Both the position numbers and the translations under genes were made by a program. The notes beneath the pieces are model-generated. The model ran no database searches. It was not told the origin of the DNA and was given only the letters and a program-made list of their open reading frames with translations. From Escherichia coli (GTDB taxonomy: Bacteria; Pseudomonadota; Gammaproteobacteria; Enterobacterales; Enterobacteriaceae), in assembly GCF_003334335.1 (NCBI RefSeq), contig NZ_QOWQ01000051.1: a DNA stretch of 21,033 nt; one strand, written 5' to 3'. This document shows, piece by piece, positions 5,848 to 17,069 of the stretch; within the stretch, counting starts at the first letter, position 1, and each line of letters opens with the position of its first letter.

Positions 5848-6558
5848 TGCCAGTTGTGGCTGCACAACTTCGTGGCTTAACGGCTTGCTGACCACGTAAC
5901 GACCATTGACCACAGAAACGGTTGGTGGCTTACGGGTTTGCTCAAAGTAGTCGTAACCCGGCTTCAGTTGCTCCCAGAAGTCCTTAAAGTTGGAATATTT
6001 ATGGCGCTTCATATTGGCGTCGGTCATGCGGAACGGGTAAATACTCACTTGCACGCTCGGCTGACCAAACACCAGCGCACCAGTAACGAACTGGAATATC
6101 TCATCAATACCCTGATTGGTCATTGCGTAGCAGCCGATGGAAACACAATCGCCGTGGATCATCAGGTATTTCCCTTCATAACCATGCGCACGGTCATAGG
6201 CATTGGGGAAACCAATATTAATCGCTTTGTAGTAACGGCTGTCTGGTTTTAACTGATTACGCTGGACGCTATAAAACCCTTCCGGGCTTTTGAAATCGCC
6301 CTGACGCTGTTTTGGCCCTAAGCCGCCGGAATATTTACAGATTTTATAGCTGTCGAGCAGTTGATATTGCTCGCCCATTTTGACGTAGAGATCGAGCGTA
6401 CGTTCTTCCTTGAAGATCTGGATGTAGACAGGGGATCCCATCAACTGCTGCTTATACTCTTTGCTCACAGGCGTGGTAGAGCTACTGCTGCCCAGCAAAC
6501 CGGCAAATGAAACGCACGGGATCAACAACATCGCAAGAATTAATGCGATTTTACGCAT
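5818..6558 (-). CDS. yafK: L,D-transpeptidase-fold (YkuD) periplasmic protein YafK
   Basis: 246 aa with an N-terminal signal peptide and the YkuD catalytic region [12 protein letters not shown]. Its 3' end overlaps the 3' end of convergent yafJ by 30 bp. Confidence 0.85.
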
Positions 6559-8389: not shown

Positions 8390-8887
8390 ATGTCTGAATA
8401 TCGTCGTTATTACATCAAGGGGGGAACATGGTTTTTCACGGTGAATTTACGAAATCGTCGAAGCCAACTTTTGACCACCCAGTACCAGATGCTCCGTCAC
8501 GCCATTATTAAAGTTAAGCGAGACAGGCCTTTTGAAATCAACGCCTGGGTCGTTTTGCCAGAGCATATGCACTGTATCTGGACATTACCTGAAGGCGATG
8601 ATGATTTTTCCTCGCGCTGGCGGGAAATTAAAAAGCAATTTACCCATGCTTGTGGATTGAAAAATATCTGGCAACCACGTTTTTGGGAGCACGCCATCCG
8701 CAATACCAAAGATTATAGGCATCATGTTGATTATATTTATATAAATCCAGTAAAGCATGGTTGGGTAAAGCAAGTGAGTGATTGGCCATTCTCAACGTTC
8801 CATCGCGATGTCGCGCGAGGGTTATATCCCATCGATTGGGCGGGGGACGTAACGGATTTTAGTGCCGGGGAGCGTATCATTTCATAA
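8390..8887 (+). CDS. rayT: REP-associated tyrosine transposase RayT (TnpA-REP, IS200/IS605 HUH family)
   Basis: 165 aa with the HUH motif (PEHMHCIW) and a C-terminal Tyr region. REP arrays flank it on both sides, the REPtron arrangement. Confidence 0.85.
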   Translation: MSEYRRYYIKGGTWFFTVNLRNRRSQLLTTQYQMLRHAIIKVKRDRPFEINAWVVLPEHMHCIWTLPEGDDDFSSRWREIKKQFTHACGLKNIWQPRFWEHAIRNTKDYRHHVDYIYINPVKHGWVKQVSDWPFSTFHRDVARGLYPIDWAGDVTDFSAGERIIS

Positions 8888-14128: not shown

Positions 14129-14496
14129 GGTGCCAGGTCGTTGATATCGCGGGTGTTAAATTCCAGCACGCGCAGGCCGTACTTCTCGTTGACCACCACC
14201 ACTTCCGCTTTGCCCAGCAGGATATTGTTCACTTTAATATCCAGCGGCTCCCCGGCGAGTTTATCCAGCTCAATCACCGTGTCGTCGTCGATGTTAAGGA
14301 GGTCGGCTAACATGATCTCCACCGACGACACTTCCAGCGTTAAGGTCACCGGAATGCGTTTTAGCAGCGTCATCGAGTCGGAAAAACGGTCTTCCAGGCG
14401 GGTGACCAGCGTTTCAGCGTCGGCGGATTTTGCGACAGGCGCAACTTCATCGGTGAGGCCAAAATCCCCGGCTAAAATATCTTCTTGCTTACTCAT
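14125..14496 (-). CDS. lfiN: Flagellar motor switch / C-ring protein, FliN homolog (Flag-2 LfiN)
   Basis: SpoA-like C-terminal domain (…VTLTLEVSSVEIMLADLLNIDDDTVIELDKLAGEPLDIKVNNILLGKAEVVVV). The start at 14496 (MSKQEDI…) is chosen for coupling to the lfiM stop; the track's longest start is 14556. Confidence 0.75.
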   Translation of the reverse strand: MSKQEDILAGDFGLTDEVAPVAKSADAETLVTRLEDRFSDSMTLLKRIPVTLTLEVSSVEIMLADLLNIDDDTVIELDKLAGEPLDIKVNNILLGKAEVVVVNEKYGLRVLEFNTRDINDLAP

Positions 14497-15340
14497 GGCT
14501 ATTCTCATTTTTGCCCGCCAGCTCCGACAAAAACAGTTTGTCTTTGTCTTCCACAATCAGGGCGCTAAATAATTCAGATTGCCCAATCGCCACCGGGAAC
14601 GTTTCTCCCAGCGAGATGGGTAAAATATCCCCGGCTTTTATCTGCGTGAGATCCGCGACATTCATCGATAGCTCGGCGATTTTGACGTTCAGGGTCAGCG
14701 GCAGGGAGCGGATGATCTCTTTAATCAGGGCCGGTTTATTGACGGATTTCGCCACCTGCTGCGGTTTACTGTGCTCGCTGTGGCGGATCAGATTTAAAAT
14801 AAAATCGGTGTGGGCGTCGTCGAGCAAAATACGAAAACAGCTCTCTTCATCGCCCGCAAGGGTAAAGGTTAATTGATACGCCCAGTGGGTAATCACCGTG
14901 CTGCTGTCCAGCTTTAATTTCAGCGCAATACCGGAGGTTTGCAGATTAAATATCAGCGTGCAGATATCCAGCGCGAGTCGGTTCTTTAATCGTGTTTCGG
15001 TTTTGGTCGGCAGGCCGTTATGCGCTTTCGCCTCTTCAAGAGACGACTCCAGACCATAAAAATTGCCCAGCAGCATTAACAGCAAGGAGCGATCAATATC
15101 AAACGCCAGATGCCCGACCTGGGAAATCATTAGTTCAGCGTTTTTATTAATAATATCCATTTCGCAGCCAATCTTTTTTAAGGTGATATTGCTGCGATGC
15201 TTTTTGAGAAAGTAGCTGCCCAGATGCGAATCAATCACGTCAAAATTCCCCGTAAACAGGGTCGGCAGGTGATGGTAGGGGCGTCCGAGCCGATTACCTT
15301 CTAATTTAAAGATGCCTGGCGTTTTACTGTACTTCAGCAT
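14489..15340 (-). CDS. lfiM: Flagellar motor switch protein, FliM homolog (Flag-2 LfiM), short form
   Basis: 283 aa. The C-terminal region (…LTQIKAGDILPISLGETFPVAIGQSELF…) resembles the FliM SpoA-like domain. No LSQxEIDALL-type N-terminal peptide is present. Confidence 0.75.
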   Translation of the reverse strand: MLKYSKTPGIFKLEGNRLGRPYHHLPTLFTGNFDVIDSHLGSYFLKKHRSNITLKKIGCEMDIINKNAELMISQVGHLAFDIDRSLLLMLLGNFYGLESSLEEAKAHNGLPTKTETRLKNRLALDICTLIFNLQTSGIALKLKLDSSTVITHWAYQLTFTLAGDEESCFRILLDDAHTDFILNLIRHSEHSKPQQVAKSVNKPALIKEIIRSLPLTLNVKIAELSMNVADLTQIKAGDILPISLGETFPVAIGQSELFSALIVEDKDKLFLSELAGKNENSHE

Positions 15341-15485
15341 GGCTTACTTTCTCTGCTGTAATGGTATGGGCGATTTTGTGCACGCAAATCCGGCAGTGAC
15401 ACAAGGTGAGGTATTAAATAGAGGGGGAGTGAAAGGGGCAAATTATTAATAGGATGAAAAAATAATTAAATTATTAAAGGGCTAG

Positions 15486-15602
<117 letters not shown>

Positions 15603-15726
15603 ATGGATAACTCATTGTTTACCATAAAATAATATTTTTATTATCGTTTAATTCGAACTTGTTAATCCCGCCGGTGATACGCTTCACAATATCCTGTTTT
15701 CTGTCGCTACTGATATCGTTCACCCT

Positions 15727-16713
15727 ATGTCTGAACTTATTGCAACTGCCGCTTCCAGCATTAACGCTTTTACTCTGGCAAAGCGTGTCGCCGCATTTAA
15801 CGTGCCGGTGCTCATTCAGGGCGAAACCGGCGCGGGCAAAGAATGCGTGGCGAAATATATTCACACCGTAGCCTTTGGTGAAAATGATAACGCGCCCTAT
15901 ATCGGCGTGAACTGCGCAGCGATCCCGGAAAACATGCTGGAAGCTACATTATTTGGCTACGACAAAGGCGCATTTACCGGCGCAATTGCCAGTGTGCCAG
16001 GAAAAATGGAACTAGCGAATAACGGCACCTTATTACTCGATGAAATTGGCGATATGCCGCTGGCGCTACAGGCCAAAATATTACGCGTATTGCAGGAGCA
16101 ACAGGTTGAGCGATTAGGCAGCAACCGACAAATTAAACTCAATTTTCGCCTGATTGCCTGCACCAATAAAAACCTTGAACAGGAAGTGGCTGCCGGGCGT
16201 TTTCGTGAAGATCTCTATTATCGTCTGGCGGTTATTCCTATTACCATGCCGCCACTGCGTGAACGTCTGAACGATATTATTCCGCTGGCAGAGTCATTTA
16301 TAAAAAAGTACTCCACGGTGCTGGTGAAAAATATCACCCTTTCAGAATCTACCCGCCGGGCGCTGCTCAATTACCGCTGGCCCGGCAACGTGCGCCAGCT
16401 GGAGAACGCCATTCAGCGGGGAATGATTTTAAATCGCGACGGCGTGATTTACCCGGATGCCTTAGGCCTGCCGGAAACGGACGTTGCCGACCGCAGCGAA
16501 CTGCAATGGCCTGTTCAGCCCGCCGTCCACATTGCCGAAACCAGCGATTTGGGCCAGCACGGACGAAGCGCCCAGTATCAATATATCGCTGACCTGATGC
16601 GTAAATATCAGGGCAACCGCAGCAAAATCGCCGACCTGTTAGGCATTACCCCGCGCGCACTGCGCTATCGACTGGCCTCCATGCGCAAGCAAGGTATCGA
16701 AGTTTTCTCCTGA
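15727..16713 (+). CDS. lafK: Sigma54-dependent transcriptional activator (AAA+ plus HTH, no N-terminal regulatory domain), LafK-like
   Basis: 328 aa with Walker A GETGAGKE, the GAFTGA sigma54-contact loop, Walker B LLLDEIGDM and a C-terminal Fis-type HTH (…IADLLGITPRALRYRLASMRK). The AAA+ domain starts within the first few residues. An in-frame stop lies at 15649-15651 upstream. Confidence 0.85.
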   Translation: MSELIATAASSINAFTLAKRVAAFNVPVLIQGETGAGKECVAKYIHTVAFGENDNAPYIGVNCAAIPENMLEATLFGYDKGAFTGAIASVPGKMELANNGTLLLDEIGDMPLALQAKILRVLQEQQVERLGSNRQIKLNFRLIACTNKNLEQEVAAGRFREDLYYRLAVIPITMPPLRERLNDIIPLAESFIKKYSTVLVKNITLSESTRRALLNYRWPGNVRQLENAIQRGMILNRDGVIYPDALGLPETDVADRSELQWPVQPAVHIAETSDLGQHGRSAQYQYIADLMRKYQGNRSKIADLLGITPRALRYRLASMRKQGIEVFS

Positions 16714-16727
16714 CCCGGAAGTTAAAA

Positions 16728-17069
16728 ATGAGCATTACCACAATCAACAGCACCATGCAGGCGCAAATCATGCAGGACGTGCAGCGGATGCAGGCCAACG
16801 CCCAGGCGCCGGTGCTACCCGCCATGACCTTCAGTTCCACAGACCCGGACGTGTCGTTTAACCGCATTATGTACGGCGCGCTTGGTCATGTTGATCAGTT
16901 CCAGCAGGTGGCGGAGCTGCAGCAAACGGCTGTCGACACGGGCAAAAGTGATGACCTGGCAGGTGCGATGATCGCCAGCCAGCAGGCGTCGCTCTCTTTC
17001 TCCGCGCTGGTGCAGGTGCGCAATAAAATCGCCACCGGGTTTAACGACCTGATGAGTATGTCGATCTAA
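16728..17069 (+). CDS. lfiE: Flagellar hook-basal body protein, FliE homolog (Flag-2 LfiE)
   Basis: 113 aa small protein directly upstream of the FliF homolog, with a FliE-like C-terminal region (…ASQQASLSFSALVQVRNKIATGFNDLM). Confidence 0.75.
   Translation: MSITTINSTMQAQIMQDVQRMQANAQAPVLPAMTFSSTDPDVSFNRIMYGALGHVDQFQQVAELQQTAVDTGKSDDLAGAMIASQQASLSFSALVQVRNKIATGFNDLMSMSI

Follow-up and report, generated by a model that had tools for sequence, protein, structure and literature searches.

The Flag-2 locus and lafK

The stretch of Escherichia coli DNA analysed here (the window, 21,033 nucleotides) belongs to Flag-2, the second, lateral-type flagellar locus of the species. The segment 15200-16900 is 100% identical to the Flag-2 locus of strain 300709 (NZ_CP025903.1); at least 80% of it was found in 1276 of 5426 complete E. 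coli genomes, and it is identical or nearly so across many independent complete genomes. No gene of the 300709 locus, from the flhA homologue through lafU, is flagged as a pseudogene in the annotation. The genes around the region of interest are arranged as follows:

14489-15340, minus strand: lfiM (FliM-like), first gene of the divergent lfiMNPQR-lfhBA operon (open reading frame list and annotation)
15341-15726, no strand: non-coding divergent intergenic region between lfiM and lafK, 386 bp (three-frame translation)
15727-16713, plus strand: lafK, coding sequence of the Flag-2 sigma-54-dependent activator, 328 aa plus stop (open reading frame list, Pfam, identity to LafK)
16728-17069, plus strand: lfiE (FliE-like), 14 nt 3' of lafK (open reading frame list and annotation)

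Given this position and the published gene order lfhAB-lfiRQPNM-lafK-lfiEFGHIJ (PMC6993521), the open reading frame 15727-16713 is lafK. Strain 300709 carries the gene between its lfiM and lfiE homologues under the annotation 'sigma-54 interaction domain-containing protein' (WP_001292204.1), and the query protein shares 98% identity with a widespread cluster of E. coli LafK; NCBIfam has no HMM for LafK. The gene heads the string lafK-lfiEFGHIJ, an order shared with Hafnia, Citrobacter, Vibrio and Aeromonas, and the 300709 annotation lists no kinase gene in the Flag-2 locus, either adjacent to lafK or elsewhere. No experimental work on E. coli LafK was found in the literature searched. E. coli lafK is a known, intact gene, and an ordinary one within its own clade.

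Domain architecture and start of LafK

The protein begins MSELIATAASSINAFTLAKRVAAFNVPVLIQGETGAGKE (translation of 15727-16713, plus strand). Its domains and motifs, together with the stop codon that precedes it, are:

15649-15651, plus strand: TAA stop codon 5' of the lafK start and in frame with it (three-frame reading)
15742-16242, plus strand: AAA+ sigma-54 interaction domain, residues 6-172 (Pfam PF00158, Sigma54_activat, E 8.6e-64)
15820-15843, plus strand: Walker A motif GETGAGKE, residues 32-39 (read from the sequence)
15967-15984, plus strand: GAFTGA loop, the sigma-54 contact, residues 81-86 (read from the sequence)
16258-16464, plus strand: AAA+ lid, residues 178-246 (Pfam PF25601, AAA_lid_14, E 1.1e-19)
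16576-16677, plus strand: DNA-binding Fis-type HTH, residues 284-317 (Pfam PF02954, HTH_8, E 2.3e-8)

The 25 sense codons that follow the TAA include no ATG, GTG or TTG, and 15727 is therefore the earliest possible start. The PF00158 match spans model positions 3-167 of 168; given that it is nearly full-length, the AAA+ domain of LafK is complete and begins at the first residues of the protein. The Pfam search of LafK identified no domain N-terminal to the AAA+ core, neither a receiver nor a FleQ-type N-terminal domain. In an alignment of 16 enterobacterial orthologues (alignment A1), the Walker A residues G32, E33, T34, G35, G37, K38 and E39 are invariant, residues G81-A86 of the GAFTGA loop show no variation, and the Walker B residues D105/E106 (segment LLLDEIG), R160/R166 and R223 are the same in 16/16 sequences; the HTH segment ITPRALRYRLA is almost invariant. 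That the catalytic and sigma-54-contacting motifs are all invariant argues that E. coli LafK should be a working sigma-54 activator, predicted to activate transcription at -24/-12 promoters. The first-pass annotation of this DNA had described an open reading frame with Walker A within its first 40 residues, an in-frame stop 25 codons upstream and a PspF/HrpS-like architecture of AAA+ and HTH domains only, and this description is correct throughout.

Conservation of the short form

The nearest 90%-identity protein clusters to LafK are all 324-348 aa in length with the same Pfam architecture, and come from E. coli, Citrobacter, Leminorella, Enterobacter, Pseudescherichia, Scandinavium, Atlantibacter, Siccibacter, Budvicia, Pantoea, Hafnia, Pragia, Regiella, Paramixta and others. 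The enterobacterial LafK orthologues found, down to about 60% identity, lie within the same 324-348 aa and share both the start region and synteny. Within the 16-sequence alignment, conservation begins at the E. coli N-terminus, other genera having no more than 10-20 extra, unconserved residues, and an N-terminal extension is absent from 114 of the 118 proteins retrieved at 60% identity or above. The four exceptions, P0053, P0068, P0110 and P0080 (62-73% identity, 462-521 aa), were considered as long LafK proteins and rejected as chimeric metagenome assemblies: they consist of the N-terminal half of GlnG, TyrR or another regulator and a LafK C-terminus, with joints at or near conserved AAA+ motifs, for example FREDL...PPLRER.

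The lfiM / lafK-lfiE-lfiF arrangement is common to Hafnia, Citrobacter and E. coli, and the lfiM-lafK intergenic regions of Hafnia and Citrobacter are about 630-640 bp long, 31-39% GC, with stops in all frames. All three plus frames of 15341-15726 in E. coli also contain stop codons; a longer lafK open reading frame, or a sequencing error that hides one, is ruled out by stops in all plus frames of E. coli, Hafnia and Citrobacter. A tblastn search of five enterobacterial loci and of the whole window with seven receiver-like N-terminal domains taken from longer relatives found no receiver relic upstream of lafK, the best match (E = 0.34) being located elsewhere in the window and representing noise only. 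The earlier suggestion that a 5' coding segment had been lost from the intergenic region is contradicted by both results. Furthermore, lafK is under strong purifying selection, with a dN/dS of 0.07 between two E. coli alleles (dS 0.25) and of 0.04-0.05 between E. coli and two Citrobacter species. In summary, the short LafK has not arisen by local damage: all enterobacterial LafK proteins share this form, which is old, conserved and under selection.

The region upstream of lafK

Two features of the intergenic region bear on the origin and expression of lafK:

15520-15602, no strand: REP pair (BIME-like), E. coli-specific (inverted repeats)
15616-15679, plus strand: AT-rich block of 64 bp conserved between E. 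coli and two Citrobacter species (alignment A3, blastn)

The first-pass annotation had noted REP and AT-rich DNA adjacent to lafK and had raised the possibility of an N-terminal truncation associated with it. The REP pair is present, as are AT-rich stretches at 15400-15500 and 15600-15700 (GC 31-34%); the association with a truncation does not stand, since the short form occurs in Citrobacter, Hafnia and Enterobacter, where REP is absent from the lafK upstream regions. The REP segment matches 5426/5426 E. coli genomes at many places in each, and REP is also found in a second E. coli lafK-upstream allele that is about 7% divergent. Given that REP is found only in E. coli and the short form across Enterobacterales, REP came later and is unrelated to the short form.

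Outside the block at 15616-15679 the spacer is otherwise diverged between E. coli and the two Citrobacter species, and the block is a candidate sigma-70 promoter of lafK, with a possible -35 element TTGTTT at about 15615-15620, an 18-nt spacer and a possible -10 element TATTAT at about 15639-15644. C. amalonaticus has a perfect TATAAT at the candidate -10 position. A promoter scan upstream of lafK proposed another -35/-10 pairing, a single site compared with 1.3 expected by chance. No sigma-54 promoter for lafK or lfiM was found: 15341-15726 contains no -24/-12 site before either gene at two mismatches or fewer. Neither E. coli nor Citrobacter has a Shine-Dalgarno sequence at the lafK start; Vibrio lafK has one.

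Candidate target promoters

Across 38 kb of the Flag-2 locus there are three sites with one mismatch to TGGCAC-N5-TTGCA, all outside the window, all intergenic and correctly oriented, and each about 30-50 nt before the first gene of a string:

TGGCACGGCGATTGCT: candidate -24/-12 promoter of lfgB, 1 mismatch
TGGCACGCCTTTTGCC: candidate -24/-12 promoter of lafB, in the string that contains the sigma-28 gene lafS, 1 mismatch
CGGCACGCTTATTGCA: candidate -24/-12 promoter of the gene preceding a glycosyltransferase gene (probably one operon), 1 mismatch

The number of sites is by itself not significant (0.95 expected, with 17/200 shuffles reaching three); the telling feature is their placement. In the published Laf hierarchy, LafK and sigma-54 activate class 2, to which the sigma-28 gene belongs, and flagellin is then activated by sigma-28. 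The placement of the putative sites, before flgB-type and fliD-type operons, matches this hierarchy. The Flag-2 flagellin LafA was undetected in E. coli EC958 at 28 or 37 °C (PMC4637896). LafZ, which is specific to Flag-2, has as its only domain an N-terminal winged-helix DNA-binding domain of the ToxR/OmpR type and is a candidate transcriptional input to the locus. Other Flag-2-specific genes, LafW and hypothetical proteins, are likewise uncharacterised.

The long LafK proteins of Vibrio and Aeromonas

V. parahaemolyticus-type LafK forms a cluster of 1333 members (P0446, 444 aa), among them proteins named from V. parahaemolyticus, V. harveyi and V. alginolyticus, and its context in Vibrio is motY-lafK-fliEFGHI, next to fliMNPQR-flhBA. 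The A. hydrophila protein that NCBI names LafK is 458 aa long and encoded directly before fliE. Like E. coli lafK, both genes lie directly upstream of fliE-fliFGHIJ in a lateral-type cluster, and the proteins are 48% identical to E. coli LafK over the AAA+-lid-HTH region, with GAFTGA and the ATPase motifs intact: residues 1-328 of E. coli LafK align with 123-438 of the Vibrio protein and residues 4-326 with 140-452 of the Aeromonas protein. The identity and the fliE-upstream position together bear out the LafK-like assignment made in the first-pass annotation. The difference lies at the N-terminus, where E. coli LafK is without the first ~122 (Vibrio) or ~139 (Aeromonas) residues; unlike Vibrio, E. 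coli is also without motY upstream of lafK. LafK is thus short in intact Flag-2 loci (324-348 aa) and about 120 residues longer in the Laf systems of Vibrio and Aeromonas, so that the question of whether intact systems share the short protein is answered yes for the former and no for the latter. P0157 (368 aa), considered as a short Vibrio-type LafK, was rejected: its start is mis-called and the true protein is P0272, of 462 aa.

Residues 7-113 of Vibrio LafK give a full-length but weak Response_reg match (E 0.0046), and comparison with the GlnG receiver places Ser at the phospho-acceptor Asp and Arg at the conserved Lys. The receivers of LafK relatives in Shewanella, Thaumasiovibrio and others are equally degenerate, and Aeromonas LafK keeps the Asp and the Lys but not the acidic pocket. 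To judge from these comparisons, the extra ~120 residues of Vibrio and Aeromonas LafK are a degenerate receiver domain that is gone in Enterobacterales. A 2011 survey placed LafK with PspF and HrpRS in class Ic, 'lacking the signal recognition domain' (PMC3162934), and this class description sets no requirement for an N-terminal receiver in LafK; the weakness of the Response_reg match probably explains the placement, the survey being based on Pfam.

Relationship to other sigma-54 activators

LafK resembles PspF and HrpR/HrpS in having AAA+ and HTH domains only, with nothing N-terminal to the AAA+ core, and its alignment with PspF starts at LafK residue 4 and PspF residue 8. Nevertheless, LafK and PspF are not orthologous (236.4 bits against TIGR02974, cut-off 443.55; 204.6 against NF008622, cut-off 529), the LafK regulon differs from those of PspF and HrpRS, and no candidate for a PspA- or HrpV-like anti-activator was recognised among the annotated Flag-2 genes. 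FleQ, FlrA and FlaK are, like LafK, sigma-54-dependent flagellar activators atop a hierarchy, and their AAA+ core has 47% identity with that of LafK. However, LafK has no counterpart of the N-terminal domain of FleQ and FlrA and begins where the FleQ LFRS motif would lie.

Among solved structures the best match to LafK is the AAA+ domain of V. cholerae FlrC (4qhs, E 3.7e-75), which ranks ahead of NifA, NtrC1 and FleQ. Among the matches listed, LafK relatives at 44-51% identity are nearly always encoded upstream of fliE, the flrC/fleR position, and several carry the JGI name 'response regulator FlrC'. FlrC, FleR and FlaM are NtrC-type response regulators of polar flagella, and genes of the FlrC type likewise lie just upstream of fliE; LafK differs from these regulators in having no receiver, no phospho-acceptor Asp and no adjacent histidine kinase gene. 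The affiliation with FleQ/FlrA-type master regulators assumed in the first-pass annotation is therefore replaced by one with FlrC/FleR-type regulators upstream of fliE, which are the nearest relatives.

In a neighbour-joining tree of the core region (100 bootstraps), the enterobacterial LafK proteins form a clade in 100/100 replicates. The nearest neighbours of this clade are long forms, namely a Pseudomonas fragi protein (468 aa, 56% support) and the Vibrio/Aeromonas/Shewanella LafK group (53%). From these comparisons, we infer that enterobacterial LafK is an anciently receiver-less derivative of a FlrC/FleR-like regulator. The simplest account is that the receiver was lost once, long ago, at the base of the enterobacterial Flag-2 loci; the preference for loss over gain is in part an argument from parsimony, as the branch that joins enterobacterial LafK to the receiver-bearing lateral LafK clade has moderate support (53%). 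Among the matches listed, Steroidobacteraceae, Pseudomonadales and several gammaproteobacterial MAGs also have short forms beside fliE, interspersed with long ones; this suggests independent losses, although the deep branches are weakly supported.

Control of LafK activity

The best explanation of these findings, and in our judgement a probable one, is that lafK is an intact and functional gene whose product has long been without a receiver and works as a constitutive ATPase, regulated by how much of it is expressed. The ancestor of LafK would have been a FlrC/FleR-like response regulator encoded directly upstream of fliE, the receiver of which was presumably kept in degenerate form in the LafK proteins of Vibrio, Aeromonas, Shewanella and Photobacterium and lost completely in the common ancestor of the enterobacterial Flag-2 loci. 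Without a receiver, any LafK present in the cell most likely assembles and turns over ATP. Regulation would then fall on lafK expression: a sigma-70-type promoter within the AT-rich lfiM-lafK region, which is probably silenced, would drive transcription, and translation would begin at a site without a Shine-Dalgarno sequence. Once made, LafK would act at the -24/-12 promoters before lfgB, lafB and the gene preceding the glycosyltransferase, and sigma-28 would subsequently switch on lafA, which encodes the flagellin. Four elements of this account are inferred: that LafK is constitutively active, that its expression is the point of control, that the promoter is correctly assigned and that the region is silenced. 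The lack of a -24/-12 site at lafK, the candidate sigma-70 block, the lack of a Shine-Dalgarno sequence and the undetected flagellin all fit an output that is set by the amount of LafK. Loss of a receiver does not, however, always give an active protein, since enteric NtrC needs its phosphorylated receiver for assembly.

An alternative is that LafK is controlled in trans at the protein level, with an anti-activator that holds it inactive or a co-activator that it needs, in response to a signal such as the state of flagellar assembly. Precedents for such control are PspA-PspF, HrpV-HrpS, FliX-FlbD and, in Rhodobacter, FleT with FleQ. LafK has the architecture of the PspF/HrpRS class, members of which are so controlled (PMC3162934), a degenerate EAL protein encoded in the laf system of V. 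parahaemolyticus, LafV, represses surface-regulon genes with LafK present (PMC9303241), and the uncharacterised genes specific to Flag-2 could supply a partner. However, this is rather unlikely for three reasons: first, no candidate partner was found among the Flag-2 genes. Second, the winged helix of LafZ points to transcriptional and not protein-level control. Third, the annotation of the E. coli Flag-2 locus includes no homologue of lafV. Control in trans is nonetheless compatible with control through lafK expression, and both could hold together.

Far less probable is that c-di-GMP binds the ATPase core of LafK and switches the protein off, as it does FleQ and FlrA, which would make a separate sensor unnecessary. 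The AAA+ domain of FleQ binds c-di-GMP in solved structures (5exx and others) and c-di-GMP generally represses lateral flagella in Vibrio (PMC9303241), yet none of the five FleQ contact residues is conserved in LafK (R144, R185, N186, E330 and R334 correspond to S2, K43, Y44, S190 and K194), and the position of the LFRS motif coincides with the start of LafK, making a FleQ-style mode of c-di-GMP binding unlikely.

Finally, a recent local truncation, by which lafK would be a non-functional remnant that lost its 5' part through REP insertion, deletion or sequencing error, can draw on the REP pair and AT-rich DNA directly upstream and on the ~120 additional residues of the characterised Vibrio and Aeromonas proteins, but is scarcely credible and is refuted in practice by the conservation and selection data, given a short form with an unchanged start region in Citrobacter, Leminorella, Atlantibacter, Hafnia, Budvicia, Pragia, Pantoea and other genera, the lack of REP at the non-E. 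coli loci checked, a dN/dS of 0.04-0.07, a Pfam AAA+ match from model position 3, the absence of a receiver relic in every frame and a sequence that varies little or not at all among many independent complete genomes.

A broader proposal may be put forward tentatively, as possible though more doubtful than the explanation given for E. coli LafK itself: that the receiver was lost repeatedly and independently in EBP genes upstream of fliE, enterobacterial LafK being a natural receiver-deleted FlrC-type regulator. There may then be a recurrent route from two-component regulators, through orphans with a pseudo-receiver, to master regulators controlled by expression or by a partner, and the input to Flag-2 might be the ToxR-like membrane regulator LafZ.

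Significance for Flag-2

The missing signal domain of LafK is already known from the 2011 survey (PMC3162934); no comparison of LafK domain architecture between Enterobacterales and Vibrio was found in the literature searched. What is added here is that the short form is ancient, conserved, selected and unrelated to REP, that the LafK proteins of Vibrio and Aeromonas have a degenerate receiver compared with none in Enterobacterales, and that the lineage is FlrC/FleR-like, not FleQ-like. This corrects an easy misreading of lafK as a truncated gene and opens no new question. About one in four complete E. coli genomes carries Flag-2, yet the system seems silent in the laboratory. Given that its top regulator is without a sensory domain, the inducing signal should be sought at the lafK promoter, in the silencing of the region and in possible partners, and control of LafK itself by a kinase or a ligand is unlikely. 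It is predicted that expression of lafK alone should switch Flag-2 on, which would provide a practical route to the study of this system.

The receiver domain in LafK and fliE-linked activators

The N-terminal domain of the V. parahaemolyticus-type LafK (residues 1-122 of the 444-aa cluster representative P0446, encoded at 6001-6366 of the Vibrio lateral cluster L008) is a pseudo-receiver. It gives a weak Pfam match (E 0.0046), the phospho-acceptor position is occupied by Ser, the conserved Lys is replaced by Arg and the acidic pocket by EPNE. No kinase gene lies within the retrieved part of this lateral cluster. Unrelated Gammaproteobacteria, a Steroidobacteraceae MAG among them, encode receiver-less AAA+-HTH proteins of 336-350 aa directly upstream of fliE. 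The genes found in this position are:

L005 5001-6011, receiver-less AAA+-HTH gene 5' of fliE
L007 5001-6038, the same arrangement
JGI contig of P0216, the same arrangement
L034, the same arrangement
L040, the same arrangement
L049, the same arrangement

A second sigma-54 activator gene adjoins the receiver-less gene in three of these loci (L005, L007 and the P0216 contig). The scattering of these short proteins among long forms in the tree suggests that the receiver has been lost repeatedly among fliE-linked activators.

Artefacts in public protein data

Four proteins of 462-521 aa from public metagenome assemblies (P0053, P0068, P0110 and P0080), apparently receiver- or ACT-bearing forms of LafK, were rejected as assembly chimeras: in these, a LafK C-terminus is fused behind E. 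coli GlnG, TyrR or another regulator, with the junction at or near conserved AAA+ motifs such as FREDL...PPLRER. Such proteins could misdirect surveys of domain architecture. The 90%-identity cluster of P0446 holds LafK proteins of 443-444 aa together with 340-aa V. parahaemolyticus MotY proteins, a mixture that probably reflects a clustering artefact connected with the overlap of motY and lafK.

The region upstream of lafK

In Vibrio the lafK start is preceded by AAGG at about -8. Neither Citrobacter nor E. coli (window 15667-15726, cgttcaccctATG) has a recognisable Shine-Dalgarno sequence before the lafK ATG, an absence that may hold LafK levels low. Within the lfiM-lafK spacer, an AT-rich block at 15616-15679 is common to E. 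coli and two Citrobacter species, and the rest is unalignable. The conserved block contains sigma-70-like hexamers as well as the TAA at 15649-15651, upstream of lafK and in its frame. The spacer also carries a REP pair, and a gene for a REP-associated transposase lies approximately 6.6 kb from it, just beyond the Flag-2 boundary and adjoining the flhA homologue:

Window 8390-8887, + strand, REP-associated tyrosine transposase RayT

A candidate input to lafK transcription is encoded outside the window:

L004 6252-7094, - strand, LafZ, annotated 'transcriptional regulator'

The only Pfam domain in LafZ is an N-terminal OmpR/ToxR-type winged helix (residues 24-96) and the following ~180 residues have no Pfam match; LafZ is possibly a ToxR-like membrane regulator.

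Candidate LafK target promoters

Three near-consensus sigma-54 -24/-12 sites, each ~30-50 nt upstream of its gene, are likely LafK targets:

L001 28753-28768, + strand, ahead of lfgB
L001 27108-27093, - strand, ahead of a hypothetical gene preceding a glycosyltransferase gene
L004 8738-8753, + strand, ahead of lafB (fliD-like)

All three belong to the same Flag-2 locus, beyond the downstream end of the window, and none lies inside it.

Allele divergence and Flag-2 decay

The lafK alleles of the window (15727-16713) and of a second E. coli strain, UID2309220026 (L091 828-1814), differ at 6.5% of nucleotides, with a dS of 0.25, and their proteins differ by only ~3%. This divergence is very deep for a single species and fits the reports of Flag-2 as a recombination hot spot. 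Just downstream of lafK-lfiE in the second strain, the Flag-2 fliF homologue is annotated as frameshifted (L091 2175-2301), and therefore some Flag-2 loci are decaying while lafK remains intact.
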